A stretch of 64,000 nucleotides of DNA from an uncultured Rhodospirillales bacterium (GTDB taxonomy: Bacteria; Pseudomonadota; Alphaproteobacteria; JAWKYA01). The notes below the pieces were generated by a model. It worked only from the letters and a program-made list of their open reading frames with translations, searched no databases and had not been told where the DNA came from. Position 1 is the stretch's first letter. Each line of letters starts with the position of its first letter. Where the stretch lies: contig CAYNIC010000011.1 of the NCBI GenBank assembly GCA_964397465.1, positions 3,503-67,502 of the forward strand. The letters are read 5' to 3'. Shown piece after piece: positions 33,725 to 48,717 of this stretch. The translations under genes were made by a program, and so were the position numbers.

Positions 33725-34345
33725 CTACCTACGCCCTGCATAAGGATCATGTAGAGCAGGTACAGTAACTTGTGACGTAGCGCCGCCGCCGTTGCGTTGG
33801 AAAAGTTTCTCGGCTAACCGCGCGATGCCACCGCCGTCGGGCAAGCTCAACGGGCCCGACTTATCGTGGCTGCGCTTATAGACATAGATGCCCAGAACGC
33901 CCAAAGCGACACTCCAACTGGTCGAGAGGTTGTCGAGGGCCGCAATCACCTCCACGGCAAACGCTGGTTTGATCGCGATCAGATAGGCAACCGCCCCCAT
34001 CTGTCCCAACCAGGTCACGGCGATGATATAACCAAAGGTGGGTCTCATGCGCCGCACGTAAGGATCGTCCGACGCAACCTCGCGGCGGATGGTGCGGTTG
34101 ACTTCGGTCAGTGTAACGGCATCCCGGTCGGCTTCGATCTGCGCCATGGTTTCCAGATGGCGGTTGGCCTCGTTTATTGCTTCGGGCGGAACCTCGCCCT
34201 TGCCGATGGCGTCGGTGACACGGCCTAAGGCGTCGGACGCTGCCTTGGCCAAAGGATGAGAGAGTTTACCAAGGGCAAATCCGACGAGTTTGGCAAGAAC
34301 CGGCAAGCCGATGCCGGCAAGAAGACTGGCAAACATTTTTGTCAC
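33725..34345 (-). CDS. Putative 3-TM holin (GTA/phage holin_3TM-like)
   Basis: DPYVRRMRPTFGYIIAVTW plus following hydrophobic helices resemble the 3TM holin family. GTGA overlap with the hydrolase gene (alternative ATG at 34336). Confidence 0.55.
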   Translation of the reverse strand: MTKMFASLLAGIGLPVLAKLVGFALGKLSHPLAKAASDALGRVTDAIGKGEVPPEAINEANRHLETMAQIEADRDAVTLTEVNRTIRREVASDDPYVRRMRPTFGYIIAVTWLGQMGAVAYLIAIKPAFAVEVIAALDNLSTSWSVALGVLGIYVYKRSHDKSGPLSLPDGGGIARLAEKLFQRNGGGATSQVTVPALHDPYAGRR

Positions 34346-34800
34346 TCCACATTGTTATAGAAAACATGGCGGCCGATGCGGGCCGAGGGGGTGCGGCCGT
34401 GGGACCAATAGGGGCTGATATGGCTTGCGTGGTAATGGGTGGCGCCGTTGGTCGGATCGGCCATGGTGCCGCCAAGCGCCTCGGCGGCGATGAGAAGCGC
34501 CAAACGAAACGCCGCATCGCTTTCATCCACGGTCAGTACCTTGATCCGGTTGGGATCGCCCACGTTCCAGCAGGAAAATTGATAGGCGGCAAGGCAGATC
34601 TCCCGCACCGACCGTGTCCGCTCGATCCCTTCGCGAGCCCGGCGGTTGATGATGACGGCGGCGATCGCGCGCATGCCGGCCTCGCCTTCGCTGCGCGCTT
34701 CGCCCCACAAAGTGCGGGCCAGGATGTCCCGTTCCCGCGCCGGTTCGGCCAAGGCCTGATCGATCCGCACCGCGGCGGGACTCAAAGTGCGACTCATCAT
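34342..34800 (-). CDS. SleB-type cell wall hydrolase (endolysin)
   Basis: RTLWGEARSEGEAGMRAIAAVIINRR and ATHYHA motifs of the Hydrolase_2/SleB family. Confidence 0.8.
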   Translation of the reverse strand: MMSRTLSPAAVRIDQALAEPARERDILARTLWGEARSEGEAGMRAIAAVIINRRAREGIERTRSVREICLAAYQFSCWNVGDPNRIKVLTVDESDAAFRLALLIAAEALGGTMADPTNGATHYHASHISPYWSHGRTPSARIGRHVFYNNVE

Positions 34801-35108
34801 ACGGCTCCTTGTTTGGGAAACAGGGGAACATCCAGCTTGGCTTCGATGCGCAACAGGTGCGACGTTAACCGCCGCTCTACATCCTTCAGGTAGGCGATCG
34901 AGGCGTAGGATTTCGCCACTTCCAGTTTATAGGCGGCCAAGGTCTCGCGCAGTTGCGCATCCCCGGTGTGACATTGATGACGGAGGTGATCTAGTTTCTC
35001 TTCGCCATCGCGGCGGATGCGCCAGATGAACCAGAACAGACCGGCCAGGGTCGGCAGCTCGACCGCGGTGATCCACCACAACAGGGTCTCGGGCAAAAAG
35101 TTGCTCAT
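34797..35108 (-). CDS. Membrane-anchored coiled-coil protein (possible spanin-like lysis accessory)
   Basis: ATG at 35108 overlaps the upstream stop. One N-terminal TM helix followed by a helical region. Function inferred from position only. Confidence 0.4.
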   Translation of the reverse strand: MSNFLPETLLWWITAVELPTLAGLFWFIWRIRRDGEEKLDHLRHQCHTGDAQLRETLAAYKLEVAKSYASIAYLKDVERRLTSHLLRIEAKLDVPLFPKQGAV

Positions 35109-35434
35109 AGGGATGATCCGTTTGCAGAAGGTAAGGTTGGCGCCGGTGCGTGGGTGTCGCTTTGCCAGTTTTTTCCTTCGGTGATGATGCAAGATCGGCT
35201 GGAGGTGAGGCGCGCCACGGCAACCCAACTTGCCGTCATCGGCGCGATGTAAACATCGATGGTCGTGCCCTCCGCCGTGGTGCCGCGGCCTAGACGGATA
35301 AATCCCTTGGCGGGGGCGAGGGCTTGATCAAGCTCCGCCGTCGATCCGCACCGCGGTGCTGCAAGAGTAAGCGACGGCAAGGCAAGGATCATCGCGCCAA
35401 GCGTCAGCCCGGCGATACTGTGACAGTAGCGCAT
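35105..35434 (-). CDS. Small secreted hypothetical protein
   Basis: ATG at 35434 after GAGGAG. Signal peptide MRYCHSIAGLTLGAMILALPSLTLAA. Confidence 0.45.
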   Translation of the reverse strand: MRYCHSIAGLTLGAMILALPSLTLAAPRCGSTAELDQALAPAKGFIRLGRGTTAEGTTIDVYIAPMTASWVAVARLTSSRSCIITEGKNWQSDTHAPAPTLPSANGSSL

Positions 35435-35466
35435 AAAAATTCTCCTCAAGATGGGGTTAGAAAAAC

Positions 35467-36960
35467 CTACGGTTCGAAATCGGTTGCGGCGGCGGTGTTG
35501 GTGGCGCCCGGTCGCCAATCGCGTTTGGTCCGCGGCGCAAAGGCGGCGGCAATTCGCACCGGCTCTGCTGAAATGGCGCCGGCCACCGCATCCAGGGCGT
35601 CATCGGGACGTTTGCGACTGGTCGCCGCGGGCCGCCAGTCGCGCATCTGTTGAATAAACGGTGTCTGCCACAGGCTGCGATGGGCGTATAAGGTTCCCGC
35701 CGCCAAGGGCACATCAAGCGCATCCAAAATGCGTTGGGTTTTGGGTTTGCTGCTGTGGGCTTCGACCACCACGGTTGGAATCTTCGCCTCACTCAAGGCG
35801 TGACGTAAAAGTCCGGGCAAGAACCGGCCGATGCCGTTGGTCTCGATGGTCACTGTGGGCAGATGAAGTCCGCGCAAGAATTCGGCCGCTTGGCGGCAGA
35901 GCTGCGTTGCCTCGTCGACTTGCGGCAAGGCGGTCATGTCGTGGTTCAGATAGGTCAGGCGATGGAGATAGAAATTTCCTATCGCATCGGAAAACACCGC
36001 GGCAATCACGCTGCCGTCGCCCTTTTCCGCGGCGCCAAAGGCCGGATCCCACCAACAGCTCGCCGAGACCAGTCGCGTTTGACCCAACATCAGCACCGGC
36101 ATCCGGTTGGCCTCGCTGTAAACCAACTCGCCGTCATAGGGACGCAAGCGATCGGGGTTGAGACGCGCCGCCGTGACGTTGCTGGGCCGCAGCAACATCT
36201 GCGCCGCGAACTTCGCCTCGCCGCTGCGCCGCCGCATCTTGGCAATCTCGGTTTTGCCATAGCGTTCCGGCCAGATGCTGCGGCCCCGACGATCGAGCAA
36301 CGGCATCTCCATCCGTTTGAAGTTGCCCAGAAACGGTATGTCTTCACCCAATTCGCGCCGCGCTTCGGTGGCATAGATAGAGTAATAACTGTGGGGCGTG
36401 CCGATATAGATCTGGGTTCCGCCCGGCACCAGGATATAGGGAATTTCACTCAACCGGTCGCGCAGGTCCTGACGCTTGGGCGGGGTATCGCAGGTATTGG
36501 GAACCTCCACATCATCGCACAGGATCACATCGGCCCGGCTGCCGGTGACATTGGCCGAGATGCCGCGGCCCAGCATTGACGGATCGCGCAGCTCGCCCGG
36601 TCGTTTGACCGTAAACTGATCCATCGCCCAGGACGAAGTGCGGCGCGGTTTTAATCCCTTGGTAAAGGGATGGCGCTCGATCAGCCGTTTCACATTGCGC
36701 ACCATCTTGCAGGCAAGATCGTGCTCCGCCGCCAGAACCAAGATCCGCAGCATCGGATTCTTGGTAAACAACCAAGCACAGAATAATCCGCAGATGGTCG
36801 ACTTGCCGCTTGACCGAAACGCCAGCAGTACCAGTTCATGATCATGGGCTGCCCACCGGGCCGCCAGCCACCGCGCCATGCGGAGTTGCACCCGCGGTGT
36901 GGTTTGGCCCTGATGCTCGTTCCACATCCAGACGAATTCGGGAAAGCTGGGCGCGGTCAT
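35467..36960 (-). CDS. Phage terminase large subunit
   Basis: Walker A-like FRSSGKST, Walker B-type ADVILCDDVE, and a C-terminal nuclease-like region; 497 aa. Confidence 0.8.
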   Translation of the reverse strand: MTAPSFPEFVWMWNEHQGQTTPRVQLRMARWLAARWAAHDHELVLLAFRSSGKSTICGLFCAWLFTKNPMLRILVLAAEHDLACKMVRNVKRLIERHPFTKGLKPRRTSSWAMDQFTVKRPGELRDPSMLGRGISANVTGSRADVILCDDVEVPNTCDTPPKRQDLRDRLSEIPYILVPGGTQIYIGTPHSYYSIYATEARRELGEDIPFLGNFKRMEMPLLDRRGRSIWPERYGKTEIAKMRRRSGEAKFAAQMLLRPSNVTAARLNPDRLRPYDGELVYSEANRMPVLMLGQTRLVSASCWWDPAFGAAEKGDGSVIAAVFSDAIGNFYLHRLTYLNHDMTALPQVDEATQLCRQAAEFLRGLHLPTVTIETNGIGRFLPGLLRHALSEAKIPTVVVEAHSSKPKTQRILDALDVPLAAGTLYAHRSLWQTPFIQQMRDWRPAATSRKRPDDALDAVAGAISAEPVRIAAAFAPRTKRDWRPGATNTAAATDFEP

Positions 36961-37319
36961 GACAGATCATCATCCTCGGCATCATCGTCCGGCACGGTAT
37001 CGTCGGTATCCGCCACCGCATCCCGCGCCCGGGTCAACAGCGACGCCAAGGCATCGTCGCTTTCCGCTTCTTGATGATCCACCGCCCACCGCGCCAGACG
37101 TAACAGCCCATCCAAATGTCCTAGGGCGGATTTGCACGCAGTATGATAGGCGGAAAAACCCTTGGCGGTGTTGTCGCAGGGTGCGGCGACAAACTGGGTA
37201 TAGCTGTCCAAGGCGGTGGCCAATAAAACGGGAAGATCCTGGGCGATTTTTTGCCGGGTGGACTCGAGGCCCTTTTGGGTGCGGTTTTTGCTGGAAAGTT
37301 TTGATACCGAAACTGTCAC
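36957..37319 (-). CDS. Hypothetical phage protein with acidic C-terminus (small-terminase position)
   Basis: ATGA overlap with the large terminase gene. Function suggested by position only. Confidence 0.4.
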   Translation of the reverse strand: MTVSVSKLSSKNRTQKGLESTRQKIAQDLPVLLATALDSYTQFVAAPCDNTAKGFSAYHTACKSALGHLDGLLRLARWAVDHQEAESDDALASLLTRARDAVADTDDTVPDDDAEDDDLS

Positions 37320-37354
37320 GTCATGTCCTTTCGAGGGAAAACAAAGGCAAGAAA

Positions 37355-37585
37355 TTATCGGGGCGGCAGTGTGCCGGTGATTCCAGTGGCGATTTTTAGA
37401 AACTGTTCCAGCCGCGCCTCGACCTCAGCCAATCGGGTTTCCAGGGGCAGGGAAGATGCCGGTGAAGAAGGTGATGAATCCGGCGGCGCAATGAAAACCG
37501 CCGAGGCGGTTTCGTCGTTTTTCAGGATATAGTTCTCGTCCTCCCATCGAACGCTAAGACCGCGGTTACTGTAGATATAGGGCAT
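37355..37585 (-). CDS. Hypothetical 76-aa phage protein
   Basis: ORF in the operon frame between the fibre and terminase genes. Confidence 0.35.
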   Translation of the reverse strand: MPYIYSNRGLSVRWEDENYILKNDETASAVFIAPPDSSPSSPASSLPLETRLAEVEARLEQFLKIATGITGTLPPR

Positions 37586-37594
37586 GGAACCTCC

Positions 37595-40087
37595 TTAAAA
37601 TTCGTAGCCGTTGATATCGAGCCGAAACTGAGCCGTAGTTGTGGACGACCGCCAATACACCTGCTGGGTTGTGTTCAAGATCAGACGAAACTGTCCGGCG
37701 ATCCGCCATCCATCGAAGATGGTACCGCTGGCATTCCCGGCCGCGGTGTAACAGCCGCCGGTGCCGGTGGCGTCGGCGGCAATGGCGATGGTGTCGTTGG
37801 CCGAGGCGGCGGATTGGCCGATGGTTCCGGAGACCACACCCGCGGCCGGCGGCACCGCATTGGCGATGGATTGCACCGTCCAACTGGTGATGCCGGCGAT
37901 GCCGGTAAAGATGGTTTGTGGTGCCTGAATGACGCTGCGGTCGAACTGATAAAACTTCACCAGATTTGATGCGCCGTCATTGCGCGCCGACCCGACCAAG
38001 GCCTTGTAAGTATATCCGCCGGGAAGCATCGGTGTCGTTCCCGACAAGGATATCAATCCCGCCACGGTGGAGGTCGCGGCATTGTAAATGACCCACAACC
38101 GGTACCAGGTGGCGGCGGCTTCAACGCCGCTGTCCAACCCGTTGACGCCGCTGGCGGCGATGTCGACGGTAACCGCAATGTTGCTCAGCATCATCGCGTC
38201 ACCGGCGGCGTCCTTCACCATCAGTTCATCCGCGGCGATGTCGATCTTATTGGCCGGCGACGCGGCATTGACTCCGGCTTTCAGCCGTCGCGCTTGCCCG
38301 GCAAGGGTGAGGGAATGGGTAAAACTTAAAACGCCATTACCATTGGTGCGGAGAACTTGACCGGCCAGGCCGTCGCTGCCGGGAAAAACAAGACCCTTCA
38401 GTTTGATCTTGCCGCTGCCGTTGGGTGAGAGGTCGATGTCGCCGTTCCCGGTACTGACGATTTTCTTGCCATTGACGATCAAATCCCCGCCCAGTTTTGG
38501 CGCCGGATCATCTTCGATCTTCATCAATATCCCGGGGATGCCTTGCGCGCCGGTGTCGCCTTTCATCGCCAGGACATCCCAATAGATCCCGTTGGGCGGC
38601 GTGTGATTGATATGGGCGATTTTGCAGCGATAACTGCTGCCGGCAAGGGTTGCCACATCGCCGATGACATAGGACGTTACCGCCGACCATGCGCCTTTCC
38701 AGGCCAAGGCGCCGTCATTGCCGGCAAGGCCGTCCACGGCGACCAAGGCCCATTGCGGCGTGGTTGCCGTAAGACCGATGCGGCTTGGCGTGATGCCTTG
38801 ATGATCGACGGCGGCGATATAGGTTGCGCCGCTGGCATCATGGCGGACGACATCGCCGCGTTTGTAGGATGTCGTCATTTCCCACGCGGCCATCCAAGCG
38901 AATCCAAGCTCGGTCAAGGGCAAGGGTACAACCGTAACCGACTTGCCGGTCCACACCATCCATCGTGCGGCATAGGAGGGCGACGTCAGATCAACGGGGG
39001 TGCCGCCGCCGCTGGCGTCGGTTGTTCCCGCCTGGGCGATGTCGCCGGCGGCGAAACCGCTGCCGCCCGCCAGTTGGGGATTGGCCCCGGCTTTGTTGTA
39101 AACGTATCCGTGGCTGTGGGTTGGAAGTTCCGCCAAGGTTAGACTGTGTTTCTCTTCGCCGAAACTTGCGCCCAGTTGGCGAAGAGTAAGACCGGCACCT
39201 TGTCCTGCACCGACGATGGCACGGCCGCGCAAGTCGGGAAGTTTGACTGTGTCGTGCAAAAGCCACGTCTCGCTTCCCTGGTTAGGCGGCAAGGTGCGGA
39301 GGATGGAAAACAGGTTTTCATAGGCGCCATGGGCATGATCCGCTCCGCTTGAGGCGTCGCCCAAGGTTTTGCCATCGAGCTCCAGCCATCCGTCGGGCGC
39401 CATGCCGCCAAGGAGGCCGCCGAGAAACGGATGAATGGTGCCGACCGGTATCGCCGCCGCGACCTGACTGTTAAGGGCGTTCAAGCTGGCGGTGACACCG
39501 TTTAATGCCGCGGTACTGGCGGCGCCCAAGGTGGATCGTCCCGCTGCGGGATTTCCTGCCGCCAATAATGTCTCGCCAAATCCCGACACCGCCAGGTTTC
39601 CCGGCGGGGTGGCGATAATGGCCGTGGGCCGCCCCTCCGCATCAAAGCCCAGCGCTCGCCCGGCGCGAAGCGGCGCCAAGGGCAAGGTCATATCGACGTC
39701 GCTGTCGAACGGCGCCTTGGCAAGGGCATCGCCGGTCAAAGCCTGAACCTGCTGCACGCCCAAGGTCAAACGATCCAGTTCTTCATTCACCACTGCGGCG
39801 CGAAAGGATTCGCCATCGATGAAATCGGTGGTGCGGCTGATCGGCATGGCGCGGCTGATGGTCACCCGGCATCCGGCGGGCGGCGGAATAAAAAATACCA
39901 CATCACCGCCGCTGCTATTTCCGATGCCGGTAACCGTATAGGTGTTGATCGGCGCCCATTGGTCGTTCAACGCGACCTTTAAATCATCGCCGTTCAGAAT
40001 GGGGAAGTCGTAAGCAAAGGCCGTGACGGCGCCGGTGCCCCAATGCTGAAGGCGTGGCCGGACATCGCCGATGAGAAGATCGGACAT
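37595..40087 (-). CDS. Tail fibre protein with phage tail-collar domain
   Basis: 830 aa. Collar motif ...APDGWLELDGKTL...VKLPDLRGRAIVGAG...LTLAELPTHSHG. Confidence 0.7.
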   Translation of the reverse strand: MSDLLIGDVRPRLQHWGTGAVTAFAYDFPILNGDDLKVALNDQWAPINTYTVTGIGNSSGGDVVFFIPPPAGCRVTISRAMPISRTTDFIDGESFRAAVVNEELDRLTLGVQQVQALTGDALAKAPFDSDVDMTLPLAPLRAGRALGFDAEGRPTAIIATPPGNLAVSGFGETLLAAGNPAAGRSTLGAASTAALNGVTASLNALNSQVAAAIPVGTIHPFLGGLLGGMAPDGWLELDGKTLGDASSGADHAHGAYENLFSILRTLPPNQGSETWLLHDTVKLPDLRGRAIVGAGQGAGLTLRQLGASFGEEKHSLTLAELPTHSHGYVYNKAGANPQLAGGSGFAAGDIAQAGTTDASGGGTPVDLTSPSYAARWMVWTGKSVTVVPLPLTELGFAWMAAWEMTTSYKRGDVVRHDASGATYIAAVDHQGITPSRIGLTATTPQWALVAVDGLAGNDGALAWKGAWSAVTSYVIGDVATLAGSSYRCKIAHINHTPPNGIYWDVLAMKGDTGAQGIPGILMKIEDDPAPKLGGDLIVNGKKIVSTGNGDIDLSPNGSGKIKLKGLVFPGSDGLAGQVLRTNGNGVLSFTHSLTLAGQARRLKAGVNAASPANKIDIAADELMVKDAAGDAMMLSNIAVTVDIAASGVNGLDSGVEAAATWYRLWVIYNAATSTVAGLISLSGTTPMLPGGYTYKALVGSARNDGASNLVKFYQFDRSVIQAPQTIFTGIAGITSWTVQSIANAVPPAAGVVSGTIGQSAASANDTIAIAADATGTGGCYTAAGNASGTIFDGWRIAGQFRLILNTTQQVYWRSSTTTAQFRLDINGYEF

Positions 40088-40111: not shown

Positions 40112-40603
40112 TTAACGGATCAGGGATATTTGCTGAATGGCGTAGTGGGTTCCGGTGTCCAGCAGGCTGCGGCCGATGGCGTTCGCCGGCGACAAGCGAC
40201 GCTCGCGGTCCAAAATCTTGGCGCGCTGCTGCGTTTGGGCGATTGCGGCGCCGTTGTCGGCGAGGTCAGCATCCCGTTTGGCCAAGGCTTGTTCCGTCGC
40301 GTCGGCATGACGCGATTGCATCGCCTGTTGCAAGGCCGCCGTACTGCCGCCGTCATCATTGATGCCGCGCGCCGCCGCACTGGTGCGGGCGCCGCCCAAC
40401 TCGCGGCGTAACCCAAGGCGCCGGGTCGCTTGATCGGTCTCGAAGTTGTCGGCGATCAGCGAGCGTCGCCGCTGCAAGGACGCCAGTTGCTGCTGGGCAG
40501 CGAGGCTTTGCGCTTTCGCTTCGGCCCGGCGGGCGGGAAGATTCAGCGCCGTTTGGGCTGCTGTGGCGGCAAGCTGTGGAAGTAACGGGGTTGACGCGGC
40601 CAT
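40112..40603 (-). CDS. Ala/Gln-rich coiled-coil virion protein (hypothetical)
   Basis: 163 aa of low-complexity helical sequence. Start/stop junction shared with the upstream gene. Confidence 0.45.
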   Translation of the reverse strand: MAASTPLLPQLAATAAQTALNLPARRAEAKAQSLAAQQQLASLQRRRSLIADNFETDQATRRLGLRRELGGARTSAAARGINDDGGSTAALQQAMQSRHADATEQALAKRDADLADNGAAIAQTQQRAKILDRERRLSPANAIGRSLLDTGTHYAIQQISLIR

Positions 40604-42501
40604 CAGTCATTCACCTTAAGTTCGCAGTTGACGGAAAGAAGCGTGAAGGAAAAAGGATTGCTTTGGGTAATGCGCCACAGCGGTTCCAGCGCGCCGCGAT
40701 GCCAGCCCAAGGCCCGCACCGTGACATCGCCGGTATAGGCCGCCGGCGGTGAGTCAAGATTGACGCCGCCGATCGTCTGCAACGGAACCAATCTTGGTCC
40801 GCGGCCCACATCAACCATCAAGGCGGGGGTGTCTTTGATGCGGAAGGTGGCGCGGATCAGCCGCAAGGGCTCACCCTGAAGTTCTCCGTTGTCCGACGGC
40901 GGCAGGGGCTCGATGCTGTGGGTAAAGGCAAGACCTACTTCGATGCGGGTGGCGGTGGCGGCCAGAGAAATCACCCCGCCTTTGACCTTATAAAGGCCGA
41001 GCGGCCGGCCATCGGCGATGACCGTCACCCATTTGTCGTTGAGATGGGACAGCCCGCCCCAAATCGATTGGGCTTGTTCGGTTTCGCCCAACAAGGCGGC
41101 ATCACTGTTAAGTTGCGGATCAAATTTTTCGATCCGAAAATCGGCAAAACGTTTGGCCAAGGCATAGACGTCGCCGCCCACCACGGCGACGGCATGAAAC
41201 TCGCCGTCGGTTTCCAACCGCGTCCAGGCGGTGACATTCTCCGAGCGATAAAGGGTAAGGGCGCCGAGGCCGCCGTCGCTCATCACCACGTAAAGCACCC
41301 GCGACTTATCGGCGTAATCCATGTCGATCGGATCCGTCACCAGATGCGGAGCCAGCACCGAGAGGTCGCGGGCTTGGTAAGCCGCCTCGGCATCGGTATA
41401 AAGAAGTTCGCGAATTTGCCGGCCGCTGCGCGCGGCAAACAGGGTTGCGCCTTCAACCGCGCGGGGTGGTACGGTGCGATCAGGGTGTGAGCCGACGGTG
41501 GTTTGCCGTTTCGCCTGGACCGTGGCGGGAGATAACGGCTCGCCGGTGATCTGCCACTCGCCGCCGGTGGTCAAAACAAACAGCGTCAGACCGGAATGCA
41601 TCCCGCGAATGGCGTCGACCTGTTCCGACAACAATCCGAACTCGATCGCATCGTCATCCTCGCCGATGCCAAGATCAAAGTTGAACAGATCCGAAGTCCG
41701 CGACATCCAGATCCGGTTGGGGATCGACCGGGCGCCGCCGAACACCAACCGGTCTTGGGCGAAGGCGACGCTGGCGGGCCAGCCGCGATAGGGTGAAAAC
41801 GCCTGCTCGGACCAATCGGTGATGGCGGTGGTGTTGGGCAAGGACAGGGCCAGCGTCACCTTCACCGCCGTTGCCGAGGTGACCTCGATGATGGCGACAT
41901 CCTGGTTGGGCAGGCGTAAGTATGCGCCCAGCTGCGCCGGATCAAACACCGGTGCCGATGCGGTCAAGGTAATGGTGCCAGAGGTGCCGCTGGGCGTTAA
42001 GGTCACGGTATCTCCGGCGAAACGATAGAACGGATGATAGCGGCGTTTGGTTGTCGTATTGGCGACAAAGGTTAGATCCGCCAAAACCCAGGTTTGCGGC
42101 CCTAGACGGGTGAGGGTCTTTGGCGCAACATCGGGATGACAAATAAACAACGTGTCCGCACTTTGCGCCCAAGTCAGACGCTTGATCTGATCCGCCGTCC
42201 ACGGCGTGGCCACGGTGGCGATGACCGCATCATGGTGCAGGATGGTGATCTGCTGATGGGTGACGACCAACAGATAAGTCTGCTCGGCATTAAAGGCGAA
42301 ACCGATCAGACGGCCGGAGCCCGCGGCGATGGCGATATGACGCAGGCCAGGCCGGCGCGTCACGCCTCCGGTCGGCTGCACCAAAATATTGCGCAGTTTT
42401 TTTGCGGCGTTGCTGTACGACGCAAGATCGCCCCGGCCGTAAAGATCGCTCGATACTTCGCCGGCGGTGAAATTATTTTTGAGAACCCGCATGCGTCCCA
42501 T
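40603..42501 (-). CDS. Large tail/nozzle protein (T7 gp12 tubular-B position)
   Basis: ATG at 42501 after GGAGGAGG; 632 aa. Assigned by size and synteny only. Confidence 0.5.
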   Translation of the reverse strand: MGRMRVLKNNFTAGEVSSDLYGRGDLASYSNAAKKLRNILVQPTGGVTRRPGLRHIAIAAGSGRLIGFAFNAEQTYLLVVTHQQITILHHDAVIATVATPWTADQIKRLTWAQSADTLFICHPDVAPKTLTRLGPQTWVLADLTFVANTTTKRRYHPFYRFAGDTVTLTPSGTSGTITLTASAPVFDPAQLGAYLRLPNQDVAIIEVTSATAVKVTLALSLPNTTAITDWSEQAFSPYRGWPASVAFAQDRLVFGGARSIPNRIWMSRTSDLFNFDLGIGEDDDAIEFGLLSEQVDAIRGMHSGLTLFVLTTGGEWQITGEPLSPATVQAKRQTTVGSHPDRTVPPRAVEGATLFAARSGRQIRELLYTDAEAAYQARDLSVLAPHLVTDPIDMDYADKSRVLYVVMSDGGLGALTLYRSENVTAWTRLETDGEFHAVAVVGGDVYALAKRFADFRIEKFDPQLNSDAALLGETEQAQSIWGGLSHLNDKWVTVIADGRPLGLYKVKGGVISLAATATRIEVGLAFTHSIEPLPPSDNGELQGEPLRLIRATFRIKDTPALMVDVGRGPRLVPLQTIGGVNLDSPPAAYTGDVTVRALGWHRGALEPLWRITQSNPFSFTLLSVNCELKVND

Positions 42502-42502: not shown

Positions 42503-43069
42503 TCAGCCTCCTCCAGTCCAGCCGGTAAGATCAAATCCGCCGGCGGTTTCTTCCTGGGCGTCGATCAGACGGGCGCGGCGAAATTCTTCCTCGGCGGCAC
42601 GGGCCAAGGCTTCGGCCCGGGATGAATTCTCGGTCAAAGGAATGCAGAACTCGGCCGCCAGGCGCGCGATCAGCACATGATCAAAGAACGGCGGAAAATC
42701 CGCTTCGCCGGGGCGAAAAATATAGGTCAGGATCACTTCATCGGCGTGGGCGTGAAGCCGCCGCTCGGCGATGCGGTAGGTAAGCCCGCGCCCGCGACGG
42801 CCGTTACCGGCGGAAAGGGCGCGAAGATAATCGCCGGGCAATTGAAACGCATAGGCATAGTCGGCGGGGGGCGAGGCCGCCAAGGGCGCAAGCCGCCGTT
42901 GCGCCGTGGCGAAATTCCACGGATGGGCGGAGAGCAGGGCGTCCCGCGTCGACGGATAAAGCAGGCTGGCCACCTCGGCGGCAGCGGAGCCTTCGTCAAA
43001 TCCTAAAATAGGCGCGGCGCCGATTTTCACCAGCGCTCGGGCACAAAGTTGAATGGCGCTCAGAGCCAT
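42503..43069 (-). CDS. Adaptor / tail tubular-A-position protein
   Basis: ATG at 43069; 188 aa. N-terminus MALSAIQLCARALVKIGAAPI...HPWNFA resembles podovirus adaptor-type proteins. Synteny supports the call. Confidence 0.45.
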   Translation of the reverse strand: MALSAIQLCARALVKIGAAPILGFDEGSAAAEVASLLYPSTRDALLSAHPWNFATAQRRLAPLAASPPADYAYAFQLPGDYLRALSAGNGRRGRGLTYRIAERRLHAHADEVILTYIFRPGEADFPPFFDHVLIARLAAEFCIPLTENSSRAEALARAAEEEFRRARLIDAQEETAGGFDLTGWTGGG

Positions 43070-43152
43070 GGCTCGTTGCCTTTCCCATAAAAAAGCTCCG
43101 CGGCGATGAACCATCGCCGGCGGAGCCGATCACAACAGAGAAAATAGATTTA

Positions 43153-43410
43153 TTAGTCGGTGTTCACGCTGCCGACGGCGGTCATGTCGGCGACATCGAC
43201 CGTGCCGTTCTGGCTGGAAGCGATCAGAAGAATGCCGGCGCCGCCGTTGACATTGGCGAGAATCATATCGCCTTTGCGCAGCATATCTACGGCGGGATTA
43301 AAATAGCCGTTGGTATCGACGATGTCGGCGGTATCGGTCGAGGCATAATGCCAAAGGGTAAAGCCGTTGGCATAGGCCAGCACCGAAAGGTTTCTGGCAA
43401 GATAGGCCAT
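43153..43410 (-). CDS. Small capsid-associated hypothetical protein
   Basis: 85 aa, directly downstream of the capsid gene. Confidence 0.45.
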   Translation of the reverse strand: MAYLARNLSVLAYANGFTLWHYASTDTADIVDTNGYFNPAVDMLRKGDMILANVNGGAGILLIASSQNGTVDVADMTAVGSVNTD

Positions 43411-43448: not shown

Positions 43449-44273
43449 TTACGCTTCGCTGCACGGCAGGGTGACAAGACCGGTGCCATCGACCAGCACC
43501 GCGCCCAAGGACAGCGAGCAGCTGACGAACCACGCGGCCCGATCGTTGTGATAGGCGATGTCGGTGTTGACTTCCGATCCCACCGCGAGGGCAAGGGCGG
43601 TCTTGTGCCACCAATGGCACAGGCGGTGACCATTGCCGTCGAGGCCAAGGCCGGAATGGGGCATCCACAAGGTTCCCAGCCAGCGCTTGGCCTGGGTGCC
43701 GCGCCAGGGCAGATCGTCGCTGCCGACATAATCGGCATTGGCGAATTCCTGGATCATCAAGAGATCGGACCATTGTTTCCATCCCACCACGGCGTAACGA
43801 TCTCCGTCATCGGGCACATCGTTGCCGCCCAGGATGCCGAAGGCCTCCAGCACCTTTTGTTTGGTGAGACCGCCGCTAACCGTCGGAGTCAGATTGGCCG
43901 AGGTGTTCATCTGCGCCAAAATCAGCTCGTCGGTTTTGCGGCCCAAGGCATAGGCGCCGGCATTGGCCACCACCGCCCGCTCTTCGTTCTCGGTCTTAAG
44001 TTCGTCCAGGGCGTCCACCCATTCGCCGGCATAGTAATCCGACAGAAAACATTCGATCGGCGCGTGATCGATGTTCATCACCGGCACCTTGCCGTGTCGC
44101 GCTTTGGTCGAAGCGCTGCCCTTGCCGACTTTTTGAAACACGGTGGAGGCGCCTTTAACGCTGCCCTTGGCGCGAACGCAAGGGCGGAGCTTGGCGCCCG
44201 TACGCTGATAGGCTTCGTGAACTTCCTTTTCGAACTGCTTGATGAAAGCAGCATCAATGGAGGGTTTATTCAT
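43449..44273 (-). CDS. Major capsid protein (putative)
   Basis: 274 aa, positioned after the scaffold-like gene. N-terminal FIKQFEKEVHEAYQ... pattern resembles small podovirus coat proteins. Confidence 0.65.
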   Translation of the reverse strand: MNKPSIDAAFIKQFEKEVHEAYQRTGAKLRPCVRAKGSVKGASTVFQKVGKGSASTKARHGKVPVMNIDHAPIECFLSDYYAGEWVDALDELKTENEERAVVANAGAYALGRKTDELILAQMNTSANLTPTVSGGLTKQKVLEAFGILGGNDVPDDGDRYAVVGWKQWSDLLMIQEFANADYVGSDDLPWRGTQAKRWLGTLWMPHSGLGLDGNGHRLCHWWHKTALALAVGSEVNTDIAYHNDRAAWFVSCSLSLGAVLVDGTGLVTLPCSEA

Positions 44274-44394: not shown

Positions 44395-45132
44395 TTATGA
44401 ACTGGGGTAAAGACGGCGGAAGCCCTCGCTGACCTCGGCCACAAAGGCGGGGTCTTTGTGCTTCCAATAGCGGGGATCGCGCATCATCTTGGTCAGATCC
44501 TCTTCGGTTAAACTTGCAACCGCGGTGCCGCCACCGCCAAGCCGCGGCGGCGATCCGCTTTGCATCATGGCGTGAAGCGCCAGAACGCCGTCGCTGGTCG
44601 AGGCCAAGGCGTCGAACACGTCGCGCGGCAGGTGGGCCGTGCCCCAGGCGTTGAGTTGCCGGGCGATTTCGCGCCATGCCGTATCGCCGCCGAAATGGGC
44701 GATCAGTCGCTCGCGCTGTTTTTGCGCCTCGAATTCCGACGCCAGATCGGTGATCGCCGGCAGCATGCGTTCGCCGGCGAGATCGTAAACCAGCTGAGCT
44801 TGGCGCGGCGTGAAGTGGGCCGCGTGCAGGCGACCGTTGACATCCGGATCAATGTCCAGAAAATCGGTGCTAAGATTGATCTCGTAAGCATCGGGTGTGT
44901 CGGGGATACCGAGCGCCCGGCGGAAGGCTGCGGTCTCCGTCTCGTCGGCATCATCTCGCGGCACCCGCACCATGGTCGATAGTTTTCGCTCCAGCTCCAA
45001 ATAGGATCGCGCCAGTTTCGCCACATCGGGCGCGCCGGTTTGCGGGTCCAAAAATTTCTGGGGAATTTGCACCGTGTCGGATGAAGGGGCGGCGGGCGTA
45101 TCCGATGGTGTGGTCAGTAAACTCTCGGTCAT
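44395..45132 (-). CDS. Scaffolding-like protein
   Basis: ORF trimmed to the ATG at 45132 after AAGGA, 5 nt below the portal stop. 246 aa, helical and acidic. Sits between the portal and capsid genes. Confidence 0.5.
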   Translation of the reverse strand: MTESLLTTPSDTPAAPSSDTVQIPQKFLDPQTGAPDVAKLARSYLELERKLSTMVRVPRDDADETETAAFRRALGIPDTPDAYEINLSTDFLDIDPDVNGRLHAAHFTPRQAQLVYDLAGERMLPAITDLASEFEAQKQRERLIAHFGGDTAWREIARQLNAWGTAHLPRDVFDALASTSDGVLALHAMMQSGSPPRLGGGGTAVASLTEEDLTKMMRDPRYWKHKDPAFVAEVSEGFRRLYPSS

Positions 45133-45136
45133 GGCA

Positions 45137-46669
45137 TTATCCTTTTGTCGACGAAAGGGTTTGCGCCTCAACAGAGGCAGGTAAAATTTCAGAAGAAATC
45201 GCTGCTGGAACATCGGGACGTAACAGGCTCGCCGGCAGGTCCAGCATCTTGGCGGCCCATCTGGCGGCGGCCGGCGCATCCAAGGTCGCGGCGGCGTCCG
45301 GCCCCAACTGCTTGGCGATGTCCAGCCACGACAAGGCGCCTTGCGCCTCCAACTGGGCTTGCCGCCGCGCCAAGGGCGATCGGTATTGCAAGGTGATGGT
45401 GCGACCATCCAAGGTCAGGTTCGGCAATTCGCCGCGCCGGGATAAAATCGCCAAGGCCCGCGCCACCAACGGCGTCAAAAGTTCGGCCTGCAGCCGGCCG
45501 TAGGTTGCGCCCAATAACCGCGCGGTCTCCGCCGCCCGGTGCAGAACTTCGGTTGCGGTCATGCCCGGCGTCGCCACACTTGCCAGGCGGTCGGTCAGCA
45601 GACTGGAGCGGATCGCTTGCCGTAGGGTGGCAAGAGTCAAATCCGAGACATTGAAATTTCCCGGCACCTGCAAGGGCGTCAGGCCCGATGAGCCGACCGC
45701 CTTGGGAATGATGGTGCCCGGCACCAACCTCACCGTCGCCGGATTTAAAACACCGTCGTCATCGGCCTGCCAAATGCCGGTGACGGCGATGGCGGCGTTT
45801 TTCAGCGTCAACTCAACCACCTTGTTGGCGGTTTTGATATCGGGCAATGCCTTCATCACCGGCGAGCGGCCATAGGCCTCGCCCGGCGCTTTCATCCAGC
45901 GAAACGACAAAAAGGGCGATTGATCCAATCGCGCCTTGGCCAAAAGATGCGGGCCGTTGAATTTCTCCGCACCGCCTTCCAACACCGCGACGTAATCGTA
46001 ACCGTTGCCGGTCTCGCGGGGGACCACCGCTTCGATCACCGTGTAAAGACGATCGCTGTCGGTTGCGGCGGAAGCGGGAATCTCCGCTGCGGGAAAGCGG
46101 CTGTGCAGTTGCAGCCGGCTCAACCGATTGCGACGATAGGCGATATCCAACCTTCCCTCGGCGCCTTCCTCCAACACCACATCCCACAACGGCACGGCGG
46201 CAAAGCGAAAGGCGCTGGGTTGTCCCGGGGCGGTTTCTTCAAAGGACAAACAAGCCGTGCCCGACACCACCAAATCCAGAAAGCATTGATGAATCTCCAC
46301 CGCAAAATTCGAGCGATCGAAATGCTGCTGCAGAATCTCGGCGGCGCGATCGAGTTTCGGCGCCAGGTCGCCGTGCAGGTGTTCGGGAATTTCCCGGCCG
46401 GGGGCAAAGCCGAACCATCTGGCCCAGGGCGGCGTCAGTTCAGCCAGCAAACTGGCCGCCAATTGATCCACCGCATCGGGGGCGGTGCCGTCGAACAACC
46501 GCTCGCGGCTGGCGGCGGATAGACTGGAGGGCCCCGCTCCGGCAAAGGGCGTCTCATCCCGCGACGGCAAACTGTAGGCATAGCAGTCGCGCCACACCGA
46601 CTCCCAGGCGCTGCGCTGCATCTTGGCGCGGTGAAACCGGGCCATCACGCTTTCCGGCGTCATGATCAC
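45137..46669 (-). CDS. Portal (head-to-tail connector) protein
   Basis: 510 aa. N-terminal RFHRAKMQRSAWESVWRDCYAYSLP resembles the T7-type connector family. Position is upstream of the scaffold and capsid genes. Confidence 0.7.
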   Translation of the reverse strand: MIMTPESVMARFHRAKMQRSAWESVWRDCYAYSLPSRDETPFAGAGPSSLSAASRERLFDGTAPDAVDQLAASLLAELTPPWARWFGFAPGREIPEHLHGDLAPKLDRAAEILQQHFDRSNFAVEIHQCFLDLVVSGTACLSFEETAPGQPSAFRFAAVPLWDVVLEEGAEGRLDIAYRRNRLSRLQLHSRFPAAEIPASAATDSDRLYTVIEAVVPRETGNGYDYVAVLEGGAEKFNGPHLLAKARLDQSPFLSFRWMKAPGEAYGRSPVMKALPDIKTANKVVELTLKNAAIAVTGIWQADDDGVLNPATVRLVPGTIIPKAVGSSGLTPLQVPGNFNVSDLTLATLRQAIRSSLLTDRLASVATPGMTATEVLHRAAETARLLGATYGRLQAELLTPLVARALAILSRRGELPNLTLDGRTITLQYRSPLARRQAQLEAQGALSWLDIAKQLGPDAAATLDAPAAARWAAKMLDLPASLLRPDVPAAISSEILPASVEAQTLSSTKG

Positions 46670-46884
46670 TCTCCCAATAAAATTTTGCGGGCGGGGATAA
46701 GGCGCGCCGATTTGCCGGCGGTAATGGCAGGCTGCTCCAGCACGCCGGTCAGTCCGGTTTTGACGGTGGTGGCAAGGCCGCGGCGAATCCGGCGGTGCGG
46801 GTGAAGATCTTCCTTCACCGCGGCGGATAGGGGCGGCGGTGCCGGAACCGGCGGTGGGGTGGGGGCGATAAAGCGGCTGGCCAT
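46666..46884 (-). CDS. Hypothetical Pro-rich 72-aa protein
   Basis: ATG at 46884 after GGGAGA. ATGA overlap with the portal start. Confidence 0.35.
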   Translation of the reverse strand: MASRFIAPTPPPVPAPPPLSAAVKEDLHPHRRIRRGLATTVKTGLTGVLEQPAITAGKSARLIPARKILLGE

Positions 46885-46993
46885 CAAGGATCTCCCTGAA
46901 GCAGGTGGAACGAACGGGACAAAGGGTGGAAAAAACAAAACCCGCCGCGGTTTCCCGGGGCGGGTGAGAAGAGGCGGAGTCATGGCCTCATGT

Positions 46994-47008
46994 GTTCCTA
47001 TATAGTTC
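46994..47008. promoter_or_regulatory. Alphaproteobacterial-type SOS (LexA) box GTTC-N7-GTTC
   Basis: GTTC ctatata GTTC read directly. Overlaps the -10 of the promoter listed next. Confidence 0.65.
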
Positions 47009-47027
47009 TCTTTTCAGTTCCTGTCAA
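46999..47027 (-). promoter_or_regulatory. Near-consensus sigma70-type promoter for the portal-to-holin genes
   Basis: The minus strand reads TTGACA (47027-47022), 17 nt, TATATA (47004-46999). Confidence 0.6.
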
Positions 47028-47109
47028 CGGTATTTTTTCTTAAAAAATGAAAAAGAAGCTGGCCGCCTGTGGGCAAGGTTTCCTTCCGGCTGAATCCCCA
47101 GCGTCTATT

Positions 47110-47562
47110 TCAAGAACGGCTTACCCGACCCGCGGGATTTAAAAGACGTCCCGCGTTCCTGTCCGTCAGGGATAAAAATAACCGCCATGGGGTCCAAATA
47201 AATCGGCGCCGCAGGTGCAAAATATTTTTTACCACGGCAACGCAGGTCATCGGCCGCAGCAGGTTAAGACAAGATCGATGGCGCCGCGGGGTGCGGGTCA
47301 TCGGCATCATCACGGGAATCGGCACCGCACCCTTTGCGGTATAGAATCGAATCATCTCCGCAACGGAGTAGGGAGGAAGGAGTTTGATCATCAGACGGCC
47401 GCACAGGGGATCCACCATGATCCATCCGCTGGCGATTCGATAAAGGATAAAGCAATGGCGGAAGCCTCGTTTCAACAGATAAAACCATGGAAATTCCAGC
47501 TCGCCGCGAAATACCACGATCGCCGTAACCCCGCGGCGCGGACGATCAGAGTCGGCGGTCAT
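47110..47562 (-). CDS. Hypothetical 150-aa protein
   Basis: The 244-aa track ORF is trimmed to the ATG at 47562, which overlaps the upstream stop (ATGA). No family recognised. Confidence 0.45.
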   Translation of the reverse strand: MTADSDRPRRGVTAIVVFRGELEFPWFYLLKRGFRHCFILYRIASGWIMVDPLCGRLMIKLLPPYSVAEMIRFYTAKGAVPIPVMMPMTRTPRRHRSCLNLLRPMTCVAVVKNILHLRRRFIWTPWRLFLSLTDRNAGRLLNPAGRVSRS

Positions 47563-47924
47563 CGGACGATTCCCTTGGCCCGCAGCGGCGGCGTCAAACG
47601 CTCTAACGCTTCGCGCCACAGCTTGGCGAAGTTCGCCTCTTCGCCCCGGGCATAGGGCGACGGAGCGCGGCCCATGCGGCCGTAGTGCATCAGGATTTTG
47701 ACATGAGCCCGGCGCAGGCGCCGTCGCTCGACCAGCCGCACCAGCTCGCGCACCACGTCGTCGGGCTCGCAGGGTTTGGGGGTGGATTTTCCCGCCTCGA
47801 ACCGGGCGCCGTCGGCGCGGGCGGTCAGGCAGGCGACGCACCAAAACCAGCAGGCTAAACTCGTCGGGAAAGGCTCCCCAATCGTTGTTCCCTTGCCGGT
47901 GGTGATAAGCTTCAACTGGCCCAT
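47559..47924 (-). CDS. Hypothetical 121-aa protein, first gene of the cluster (possible regulator)
   Basis: ATG at 47924 after AAGGGAG. Arg-rich helical C-terminal half. Confidence 0.45.
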   Translation of the reverse strand: MGQLKLITTGKGTTIGEPFPTSLACWFWCVACLTARADGARFEAGKSTPKPCEPDDVVRELVRLVERRRLRRAHVKILMHYGRMGRAPSPYARGEEANFAKLWREALERLTPPLRAKGIVR

Positions 47925-47969
47925 GGCTTTGCTCCCTTGAAGGGCTTTTTTCTCTCGCGGTAAACGAGT

Positions 47970-47984
47970 GTTCTATTATTGTTC
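47970..47984. promoter_or_regulatory. Second SOS (LexA) box GTTC-N7-GTTC in the divergent control region
   Basis: GTTC tattatt GTTC read directly. Confidence 0.6.
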
Positions 47985-48084
47985 GCTATTAGAGGGAGAG
48001 TCTATATGCACAAATACCCATGTCAAGCCTGAATCAGAATTTGATCCTAGTGACATTTTTCACCTGAATTGTGAAGGTGTTCCC

Positions 48085-48717
48085 ATGTTGAGACATGCGG
48101 ATATATGGCGGGGGATTGACCGTTTGGCTGCGACACATAATTTGTCGCCCTCGGGCTTGGCTCGAAAGTCAGGATTGGATCCCACCACCTTTAACAAATC
48201 AAAACGGGTTGCCCGGGATGGCAAGCCGCGTTGGCCGACGACGGAAAGCCTGGCGAAGATTCTGTCGGCCACCGGCGCCGGCATGAACGAATTCGTCTCA
48301 TTGATGAGCGAGACTCCCGGCACCTCGGTAACCCAGCGGATCCCGGTCATCGGCTATACCCAAGCGGGTCAGGCCGGTTACTTCGACGACGCCGGTTATC
48401 CCGCGGGCAAGGGCTGGGACGAGGTGGAGTTCCCCGATGTCGGCGATCCTCACGTTTATGCGCTGGAGATCAACGGCGACAGCATGATGCCGGTTTATCG
48501 CGACGGCGACGTGGTTGTGGTCTCGCCCCAGGCGCAGATCCGCCGCAACGACCGGGTGGTGCTGAAGACCGTCGAGGGCGAGGTGATGGCCAAGGTGCTC
48601 AGCCGCCGGTCGGCCAAGAAGATCGATCTGCATTCGCTCAACACCGATTTCCCCGATCGCAGCCTGGACAGCGACGACGTGCTGTGGATCGCGCGGATTA
48701 TCTGGGCCAGCCAATAG
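48085..48717 (+). CDS. HTH + S24 peptidase (CI/LexA-like self-cleaving) repressor
   Basis: ORF trimmed to the ATG at 48085 after GAAGGTG. N-terminal HTH (LSPSGLARKSGLDPTTFNKSKR), an Ala-Gly linker, and GDSMMP...K catalytic dyad. Confidence 0.8.
   Translation: MLRHADIWRGIDRLAATHNLSPSGLARKSGLDPTTFNKSKRVARDGKPRWPTTESLAKILSATGAGMNEFVSLMSETPGTSVTQRIPVIGYTQAGQAGYFDDAGYPAGKGWDEVEFPDVGDPHVYALEINGDSMMPVYRDGDVVVVSPQAQIRRNDRVVLKTVEGEVMAKVLSRRSAKKIDLHSLNTDFPDRSLDSDDVLWIARIIWASQ

Follow-up and report, generated by a model that had tools for sequence, protein, structure and literature searches.

To our knowledge, only a few gene transfer agents (GTAs) have been described, and conservation throughout entire orders of Alphaproteobacteria is known for the RcGTA type alone. 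RcGTA resembles siphoviruses and has an HK97-type capsid together with a prohead protease, a tape measure protein and a headful-type terminase; its expression is controlled by CtrA/GafA and quorum sensing, and the entry of its DNA is supplied by the competence system of the recipient. PBSX of Bacillus subtilis and VSH-1 of Brachyspira are fixed defective phages, which are induced by DNA damage (in PBSX as part of the SOS response) and carry random host DNA (13 kb in PBSX particles); PBSX kills without transfer, whereas VSH-1 transfers. Large clusters of the RcGTA type are reported to be confined to the Rhizobiales-Caulobacterales-Rhodobacterales-Parvularculales-Sphingomonadales clade and absent from Rhodospirillales (PMC5721377). 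In this study, we analyzed the locus at positions 33725-48717 of a 64,000-nt stretch of DNA (hereafter the window, to which all coordinates and strands refer) from an uncultured Rhodospirillales bacterium (contig CAYNIC010000011.1), which an earlier reading of the DNA (the original prediction) had proposed to be a domesticated, SOS-inducible particle locus of the podovirus type. On balance, our results favor the view that it is an anciently domesticated, SOS-controlled particle element of this type, left over from a temperate podovirus of the T7/HTVC010P type, and that it most likely packages host DNA in the manner of a GTA.

The locus is a single leftward gene train of approximately 14 kb (47924->33725, minus strand), placed between the host genes DUF952-pyrD (29887-31335, minus strand) past its lysis end and a class IV aminotransferase gene (48953-49813, plus strand) past its repressor. 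Profile searches found all genes listed in the original prediction at or near the coordinates given there. The virion genes, all on the minus strand, encode a portal, i.e., a head-tail connector of the T7 gp8 type (45137..46669; PF12236, E 4.8e-122; phrog_332), a 245-aa scaffolding protein of the T7 gp9 type (44395..45132; PF05396, E 3e-13; also a gene call in identical contigs), a major capsid protein (43449..44273; PF19821, E 2.7e-72; phrog_3437), a conserved 85-aa protein of the virion module (43153..43410; phrog_18004), a gp11-like adaptor, or tubular protein A, of 188-203 aa depending on the choice of start (42503..43114; phrog_394, E 4e-47), and a 632-aa gp12-like nozzle, or tubular protein B (40603..42501; phrog_376, E 7e-143; weak match to PF25675). 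They are followed by the gene for a 163-aa gp14-like internal/ejection protein (40112..40603), with a weak match to PF24072 (T7_gp14, E 1.7e-4) that lies under the family cut-off, and by the gene for an 830-aa tail fiber, or receptor-binding protein (37595..40087), which combines a T7-type N-terminal tail-fiber domain with Collar and CBM5_12 domains. The large terminase (TerL; 35467..36960) is of the T7 type; it matched the NCBIfam equivalog NF033889 (termin_lrg_T7) over its full length (426 bits against a cut-off of 150) and T7 gp19 in PDB (4bij; E 7e-23). The train ends with a SleB-type cell-wall hydrolase (endolysin; 34342..34800; PF07486, Hydrolase_2, E 3.5e-19; phrog_938) and a holin with three transmembrane (TM) segments (33725..34345; PF11351, GTA_holin_3TM, E 2.6e-11), the family of which is named for GTA release.

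Within this complete set of structural, packaging and lysis genes, nothing serving replication, excision or integration was recognized. None of the open reading frames (ORFs) from pyrD to the aminotransferase gene showed an integrase, replication, polymerase or large core-protein domain, a tRNA scan detected none in the locus, an Rfam scan returned no match, and a search for flanking direct repeats (att-like) found none. The domain, tRNA and repeat searches therefore confirmed the absence of integrase, replication, RNA polymerase and gp15/gp16 genes, tRNA and att repeats noted in the original prediction. The same holds for relatives, as neither the window locus nor five gene-called related loci carry mobility or replication genes. 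It should also be stressed that the composition of the locus is host-like and unlike that of the AT-rich neighboring genes, as previously claimed: its GC content at third codon positions is 0.71 versus 0.69 in host genes, and its codon-usage Jensen-Shannon distance is 0.010, compared with a host-to-host value of 0.006 and with 0.089 for the low-GC neighbors.

The locus is widely distributed. More than 4,000 capsid homologs were found at E <=1e-10, many of them 63-70% identical, with matches from named Azospirillum, Skermanella, Elioraea, Indioceanicola, Rhodocista, Oleisolibacter, Constrictibacter and Minwuia; counts made with the capsid only may take in a few real prophages, as 2 of approximately 160 fetched loci were phage-like. 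Portal homologs are also present in Magnetospirillum gryphiswaldense, Paramagnetospirillum, Caenispirillum and Terasakiella. When one genome was scanned for each GTDB species, at least 579 places were confirmed, and at least 596 provirus calls in IMG/VR, mostly of 12-19 kb and bounded by repressor and lysis genes, correspond to the element. According to the NCBI taxonomy, its carriers belong to at least four orders, i.e., Rhodospirillales, Acetobacterales, Minwuiales and Geminicoccales. When the entire locus was used as a megablast query, none of 50,697 phage records matched. The locus is therefore neither restricted to this strain nor accompanied by near-identical, full-length phage relatives.

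Gene order was mapped by tblastn on 164 fetched loci (denoted below with L and a number), 144 of which were informative, and 123 of these proved colinear. The common order starts with the repressor gene on the opposite strand and proceeds through the 121-aa, 150-aa and (in some cases) 105-aa genes, portal, scaffold, capsid, 85-aa gene, adaptor and nozzle to the ORF in the gp14 position, fiber, a small ORF, TerL, TM protein, SleB and holin; measured from the repressor through TerL, the median length is 12.2 kb (range 9.1-18.0). The neighbors are shared as well. The pyrD gene lies within the fetched stretch of 32 out of 80 genome loci (directly past the lysis end wherever genes were called), and an aminotransferase gene is found past the repressor in the window, A. 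brasilense, A. soli, A. oryzae, a Magnetovibrio metagenome-assembled genome (MAG) and others. In Skermanella sp. TT6 and Elioraea thermophila, gene calls combined with Pfam searches revealed the same layout and no mobility gene. Hence, the same locus does occupy the pyrD/aminotransferase position in related genomes, which the original prediction had named as a check.

Divergence of the element was compared with that of its host in 22 loci in which pyrD occurs together with capsid, adaptor, nozzle and TerL, concatenated here as the element core. Element-core identity follows pyrD identity at approximately 1:1 (Mantel r 0.88, a value reached in 0 of 5000 permutations): where pyrD is about 95% identical, the core is 90-96% identical, and the corresponding values are about 80% and about 80%, and about 55% and about 58%. 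Among these 22 loci there was no pair combining a similar element with a divergent pyrD. Within the Azospirillum, Elioraea and Tagaea groups, the synonymous divergence (dS) of element genes is about that of pyrD in the same genome pairs, and the ratio of nonsynonymous to synonymous divergence (dN/dS) is 0.07-0.30 in element genes versus 0.13-0.21 in pyrD, which reveals the purifying selection that was to be looked for. The mean pairwise identity of the capsid protein (0.75) is even higher than that of pyrD (0.60).

Further evidence comes from loci that were cut in two. Members of the A. brasilense group carry two genes, one PAS-GGDEF-EAL and one PRC, between scaffold and capsid. In A. oryzae, the half from repressor to scaffold lies next to the aminotransferase gene and the same GGDEF-EAL gene, and in A. 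endophyticum the half from capsid to TerL adjoins DUF952-pyrD and has ATP-synthase and Fur genes on its upstream side. The locus of M. gryphiswaldense MSR-1 is split at the same scaffold/capsid junction. All examined split halves remain intact, and in an Azospirillum group (L004-L019) in which the 10 kb preceding the capsid gene contain no portal, the dN/dS of the capsid side is 0.11-0.27. RcGTA, BaGTA and VSH-1 are host-maintained gene sets that survive as split loci. As a selfish prophage cannot survive cutting in two, whereas a gene set maintained by its host can, the split loci favor upkeep by the host. In Azospirillum, the PAS-GGDEF-EAL signaling gene within the operon (plus a PRC-barrel gene) was located at 6739-9576 of L170 and 12920-15289 of L088, and also between scaffold and capsid in L010, L018, L031 and L041.

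Taken together, the complete gene set without mobility and replication genes, the fixed position, the co-divergence with pyrD and the purifying selection make domestication the best-supported reading, and we consider it very probable that the locus is domesticated and vertically inherited. The original prediction, which preferred a domesticated particle locus to a crippled prophage, is here supported by the same site in relatives, colinearity, co-divergence, dN/dS and the split halves.

The expression of the locus appears to be wired to DNA damage. The gene diverging from the train (48085..48717, plus strand) encodes a CI-like repressor with an S24 (LexA-type) autocleavage domain (PF00717, E 5.5e-23; HTH_26; phrog_4). 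The S24/HTH repressor described originally is thus retained, with a corrected start: the ORF opens at 47968, and translation probably begins at 48085, giving a protein of 210 aa (orthologs in relatives have 210-216 aa). In an alignment of 40 orthologs, 35 have the Ala-Gly site, 33 the catalytic Ser and 31 the Lys. The 160-bp divergent region contains a promoter-like TTGACA-16-TAGACT site (48026-47999) and, downstream of it, an alphaproteobacterial LexA box, GAACAATAATAGAAC (47970..47984, minus strand). A second box, GAACTATATAGGAAC (46994..47008, minus strand), overlaps the -10 element of a TTGACA(47027-47022)-17-TATATA promoter located just upstream of the 105-aa gene and the portal. The box consensus originates from the experimentally defined Caulobacter LexA operator GTTC-N7-GTTC (PMC9578287). 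In the 64-kb window, the exact GAAC-N7-GAAC motif occurs at two sites only, both within promoter regions of the locus; as 2.0 sites are expected by shuffling, the count equals chance, and the weight rests on the position of the boxes and on their conservation in relatives. An exact box is present in the intergenic region between the repressor and the first gene in 26 out of 55 loci, compared with 0.3% of control regions (length-matched, from the same loci), and a box with at most one mismatch in 41 of these 55 divergent promoters, compared with 13% of controls. The second box is not widely kept in relatives. The SOS-boxed promoter can therefore be regarded as real, and control by DNA damage would be a conserved, family-wide feature; through boxes of the host LexA type, expression of the element would fall under host regulation.

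It is also worth mentioning that only residues ~1-157 of the fiber are conserved (in 112 loci), while the C-termini have been swapped between lineages: the distal part contains Collar and CBM5_12 in the window and pectate-lyase-type tailspikes in Azospirillum, Skermanella and Elioraea. Such lineage-specific ends are typical of receptor-binding proteins that undergo diversifying exchange, and the swapping argues for a continuing selection for cell binding.

Amongst isolated phages, the nearest one is Pelagibacter phage EXVC031P Hodr (34 kb), which shares with the locus the adaptor, the 85-aa protein, the capsid (45% identity), the scaffold, the portal, the nozzle, the N-terminus of the fiber and SleB (47%). 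Hodr differs from it in having two gp15/gp16-like internal proteins (783 and 1247 aa), an early arm and a terminase unrelated to the T7-type enzyme of the locus. No convincing homologs of its gp15/gp16-like and early-arm proteins were found in 168 fetched loci, only single weak matches. A similar picture was obtained for T7-like and HTVC010P-type podoviruses, with which the locus shares the T7-like gene order and the T7-equivalog terminase; these phages have genomes of 32-36 kb with an early/replication arm, often an integrase, and gp15/gp16-like proteins. Thus, of the equipment of an autonomous podovirus, the T7-type portal, scaffold, tubular proteins A and B, N-terminal fiber domain and terminase are present in the locus, and the early, replication and integrase genes are not; from the gp14, gp15 and gp16 set, only the 163-aa gp14-like protein, the sole core-type protein of the locus, was found. 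The gap between nozzle and TerL (median 3.1 kb) is filled by the ORF in the gp14 position, the fiber and one or two small ORFs, which leaves no room for core proteins.

When compared with RcGTA, the locus shows the same general organization. Both are phage-derived head-tail-packaging clusters, chromosomally fixed and without integrase and replication genes, both descend vertically at the depth of orders, are subject to purifying selection and are in some cases divided among several loci, both have a holin of family PF11351, and both miss part of the DNA-entry machinery. The differences concern the particle itself and its control. The structural genes of the locus match families of the T7/HTVC010P type only (T7-type scaffold, portal, tubular proteins and terminase), a prohead protease and a tape measure protein are absent according to profile searches, and control is wired to LexA and the S24 repressor; the holin family is all that is shared with Rhodogtaviriformidae. 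With PBSX and VSH-1 the locus shares chromosomal fixation and, as proposed here, induction by DNA damage, but these elements are myovirus-like or siphovirus-like, come from other phyla and are built of unrelated gene families. R- and F-type pyocins, controlled by PrtR/PrtN, likewise are phage structures at fixed sites, with RecA-dependent cleavage of a CI-like S24 repressor and their own lysis cassette. Tailocins are, however, tail-only, whereas capsid, portal, scaffold and terminase are present here and the head and packaging genes are the best conserved part, and for this reason the label "tailocin-like", offered in the original prediction, does not fit. The locus does not resemble phage satellites (i.e., phage-inducible chromosomal islands (PICIs), capsid-forming PICIs and P4-like elements) either, since it has no integrase, replication genes or att sites and does have its own complete virion and lysis set.

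The expectation that a podovirus-type GTA would be new holds for Alphaproteobacteria, for which none has been reported, but not for bacteria in general, as a podovirus-like GTA-like element, FpGTA of Faecalibacterium prausnitzii, was reported in 2026 (PMC12946183). Compared by description, both are inferred to be podovirus-like and have compact operons with their own lysis genes; FpGTA belongs to Firmicutes and its packaging of host DNA is backed by experimental evidence, whereas the locus is known from genes. In the literature searched, no podovirus-type GTA or domesticated T7-like element was described in Alphaproteobacteria, and a paper on genome streamlining of MSR-1 did not identify the locus. 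It looks like an independently domesticated, GTA-like viriform, undescribed in that literature, the distribution of which is roughly complementary to that of RcGTA-type clusters.

Based on these data, the following course of events may be proposed. In an undamaged cell, the S24 repressor and host LexA, the latter sitting on the GAAC-N7-GAAC boxes, would keep the leftward promoters shut, as their motifs and domains suggest. DNA damage would activate RecA, LexA and the repressor would cleave themselves, and the 14-kb operon would be transcribed. By homology, portal, scaffold and capsid would form procapsids, which the T7-type terminase would fill, and the adaptor, nozzle, gp14-like protein and fibers would finish a short-tailed particle. 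As the element has no excision or replication functions and is split in some genomes, the packaged DNA would have to be that of the host chromosome; the split loci, in particular, argue that the element could not package itself whole. The holin, the SleB-type endolysin and the TM/coiled-coil protein would then lyse a fraction of the cells. Finally, and more speculatively, the lineage-specific fibers or tailspikes might attach the particles to neighboring cells. Because gp15 and gp16 are absent, the particle probably could not build a channel through the envelope, direct delivery to the cytoplasm seems doubtful, and DNA might end in the periplasm, requiring uptake machinery of the recipient as in RcGTA. 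By analogy, the loss of gp15/gp16 suggests either such RcGTA-like delivery or, as in PBSX, no delivery at all. We find it rather likely that the locus still makes DNA-filled particles upon SOS induction, while its action as a gene transfer agent is proposed tentatively, at somewhat less than even chances.

Several observations weigh against this reading. In every organism the locus is known from genes alone, and particles and transfer are inferred from them. Protein identities saturate near 55-60% between genera, so that at depth it is mainly synteny that supports vertical descent. The T7-type terminases known so far work on replicated concatemers bearing terminal repeats, and such an enzyme is an unusual choice for random packaging. 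Known GTA terminases group with headful packagers (PMC7947584); the contrast between the two kinds of terminase is our own reading. The capsid protein has the same length as in 34-kb phage relatives, which implies that the head may hold more than the 14-kb locus, unlike in classic GTAs. The capsid, 85-aa and adaptor genes of two phage-like relatives with a primase-helicase, L148 and L161, are 76-84% identical to those of certain compact elements (L138, L140), so the element is not isolated from the phage gene pool, and modules are exchanged between phages and the chromosomal element. The lysis genes (SleB and holin) do not adjoin TerL in an A. lipoferum-type clade (L041/L086) and in Elioraea (L171), where the ~106-aa TM protein is what remains after TerL. 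A few loci are decaying, with portal or TerL truncated in L044, L097 and L024, although most are intact; in an A. argentinense-like strain (L170, 1-5500), an insertion has cut the portal to 219 aa, which is decay in a single strain. The inserted DNA encodes a faint Phage_integrase match and two large unannotated proteins.

The published data on Azospirillum belong here too. A. lipoferum and strain B510 produce mitomycin-induced particles containing approximately 10 kb of random host DNA, the encoding locus of which has never been firmly identified (PMC2818188, PMC3899980). The A. lipoferum/B510 clade carries a split form of the element. These particles are, however, said to be siphovirus-like in the 2008 account of Boyer, and they are therefore treated as a lead and not as support. 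An RcGTA-like region was provisionally named as their source (PMC3899980), and treatment with mitomycin C did not cause lysis of A. brasilense CBG497 (PMC3899980); both findings likewise speak against the proposed role.

Four other explanations have to be considered. The locus could be a PBSX-like defective phage or killer particle, which would package host DNA as a by-product and adsorb to, and perhaps kill or lyse, competitors without delivery, or it could serve altruistic lysis releasing DNA or nutrients. The SOS wiring, the loss of gp15/gp16 in all loci, the diversification of fibers as in bacteriocin-type particles and the predicted papain-like hydrolase at the head of the operon (described below) are all consistent with it, and PBSX itself provides a precedent. 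Nevertheless, a short podovirus tail without core proteins offers no obvious killing mechanism, and for lysis only, portal, terminase, capsid and tail would not need a dN/dS of 0.1-0.3 at such depth; moreover, the lysis cassette is the least conserved part of the locus. We regard this explanation as unlikely.

The second explanation, i.e., a still-mobile element (a minimal temperate phage or a satellite dependent on a helper or host) that repeatedly targets the site near pyrD, draws on a phage-like relative, L148 (IMG/VR 2894471438_000002, 34 kb), which encodes Prim-Pol/AAA_25. Relatives of this type share a near-identical capsid-adaptor module with the element, IMG/VR tools call the locus a provirus, and the capsid may be big enough for the whole of it. 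In L148 and L161, which both have this replication protein, portal and nozzle are distant (31-39% identity). Mobility is, however, hard to reconcile with the absence of integrase, excisionase, replication gene and att repeat here and in the gene-called relatives, with a dS equal to that of the adjacent pyrD and no similar element beside a divergent pyrD, with split halves that are intact and each beside its ancestral neighbor, and with the lack of any DNA-level match to phage records. It is thus a very improbable explanation.

Truncated genes or insertions in some loci and lysis genes missing from some clades would also be expected if the locus were a non-functional prophage remnant, persisting by chance or hitch-hiking and slowly decaying. 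This is contradicted by selection and synteny: about 15 genes are intact and colinear across at least four orders, a depth at which neutral remnants no longer persist, the dN/dS values are 0.07-0.30 and the capsid shows higher conservation than pyrD, so that we give this possibility hardly any credence. Equally slight are the chances of an anti-phage or other cellular role of co-opted structural proteins without particle release, e.g., the blocking of related podoviruses, which the candidate defense gene adjoining the locus (PDC-S33, 32386-33750) and the closeness of the capsid-adaptor module to that of co-occurring phages could suggest, but which leaves unexplained the conserved assembly, packaging and lysis set and the conservation of SOS control rather than infection sensing, and gives receptor-binding fiber diversification no role inside the cell. 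A recent deletion derivative, or freshly crippled prophage, is refuted by the spread, synteny, co-divergence with pyrD, selection and split loci.

Returning to the domesticated particle element, its most far-reaching form may be put forward as a working proposal, for which we see slightly worse than even prospects: a second, independently domesticated GTA lineage of Alphaproteobacteria would have arisen from a T7/HTVC010P-type podovirus, settled permanently in the interval from the aminotransferase gene to pyrD before the RcGTA-lacking orders of the Rhodospirillales type radiated, and joined the LexA regulon, so that damaged cells would package and export chromosome fragments; owing to the loss of gp15/gp16, these would reach the periplasm only and depend on uptake by the recipient. 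If this is true, a podovirus-derived, LexA-controlled locus in at least four orders would represent an independent and deep phage domestication, differing from RcGTA in morphology, packaging enzyme and regulatory logic and tying SOS to a possible export of genes, and Azospirillum, Magnetospirillum and related bacteria would have gene transfer triggered by DNA damage as a conserved trait. Tractable carriers are available, i.e., Azospirillum brasilense/argentinense, Magnetospirillum gryphiswaldense MSR-1 and Skermanella sp. TT6. In addition, provirus callers list hundreds of such loci as viruses in IMG/VR, which inflates prophage counts in these taxa.

The remaining genes of the locus, all on the minus strand, are small. 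The first gene of the operon (47559..47924) encodes a conserved, family-specific 121-aa protein with homologs in 62 fetched loci and invariant W/PC/KGI positions in the family alignment, for which Pfam, PHROGs, NCBIfam and PDB gave no match; it is possibly a regulator, and a role like that of pyocin PrtN would be a guess by analogy. The second small gene was correctly recognized in the original prediction, and its coordinates are now 47110..47562 (150 aa). For its product, AlphaFold2 modeling on a deepened alignment predicted a papain-like (NlpC/P60-YiiX-type) cysteine hydrolase fold, with moderate similarity; the family comprises approximately 700 clusters at 50% identity, in which His36 and Cys107 are invariant. 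A 105-aa protein is encoded directly upstream of the portal (46666..46983), and the ORF in this position forms one homology cluster in 79 out of 91 loci. None of these three proteins matched a described family in Pfam, PHROGs or NCBIfam. The ORF in the gp14 position likewise forms one cluster (107 of 115 loci).

Between fiber and TerL there are a lineage-specific 76-aa protein (37355..37585), without homologs in the fetched loci, and a 120-aa helical protein with an acidic tail (36957..37319; phrog_31793, E 1e-20), which overlaps the TerL start. A conserved ORF occupies the position of the latter (forming homology clusters with 49 and 26 members in a set of 98 loci), no match was found in PDB, and from its position the protein is a candidate small terminase. 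Both "envelope proteins" of the original prediction exist, one being conserved and the other lineage-specific only: the former (34797..35108), of ~105 aa, has an N-terminal TM segment and a coiled coil (phrog_29007, E 6e-33), was found in 41 of 80 genome loci and may be a lysis accessory or spanin-like protein, and the latter (35105..35434) has, according to its sequence features, a signal peptide. Overall, none of the profile or sequence searches of PDB, Pfam, PHROGs and NCBIfam with the 121-, 150-, 105-, 120- and 163-aa proteins and the TM protein produced a usable match.

Some variation of the layout was observed in relatives. A gene for a ~90-aa Bbp19-like protein (PF25181) lies between portal and scaffold in 74 fetched loci (e.g., L088, 11565-11849, and L089, 11496-11768) and in phage Hodr, and the window locus is without it. 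The gap between nozzle and TerL is just 0.5-0.7 kb in L040, L045, L075, L078, L118 and L151, i.e., there is no fiber at the usual place, and in L118 the fiber N-terminus was found after the lysis genes. In L027, L061 and L063, SleB and fiber are placed between the 85-aa gene and the adaptor. In L051, L070, L073 and L125, pyrD is inverted and lies immediately upstream of the capsid gene, not past the lysis genes, which points to a local inversion or rearrangement keeping the linkage. The element was also present in three records with non-Rhodospirillales names, i.e., L051 (CP051228, "Mesoflavibacter sp."), L020 (a "Hydrogenophaga intermedia" MAG) and L067 ("Hyphomicrobiales bacterium UR115"). 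A pyrD of the alphaproteobacterial type is located beside the lysis end in L020 and L067 and upstream of the capsid gene in L051, and these records are probably mislabeled or mis-binned rather than cases of transfer.

Finally, the surroundings of the locus in the window were inspected. Between holin and pyrD there is a low-GC (0.45) gene for a 454-aa RelA/SpoT-domain protein (32386-33750, minus strand), which matches the PADLOC candidate PDC-S33 (E 3e-104) and is absent at this position in all related loci; it is adjoined by a 269-aa gene of unknown function (31441-32250). On the other side, just past the aminotransferase gene, a low-GC island (49830-53755; GC 0.37-0.49) contains five unannotated ORFs, one of which (345 aa) has weak WYL/AbiEii-like matches. 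The low-GC genes at 32386-33750 and 49830-53755 indicate that both flanks of the element carry recent imports. Further upstream of the element, a 943-aa DinG-like helicase is encoded (54178-57009, minus strand; Helicase_C_2; PADLOC type IV DinG models, E 2.5e-87), and in Elioraea thermophila (L171, 1-1815) a 931-aa Helicase_C_2 protein is likewise encoded upstream, which suggests a wider conserved synteny.

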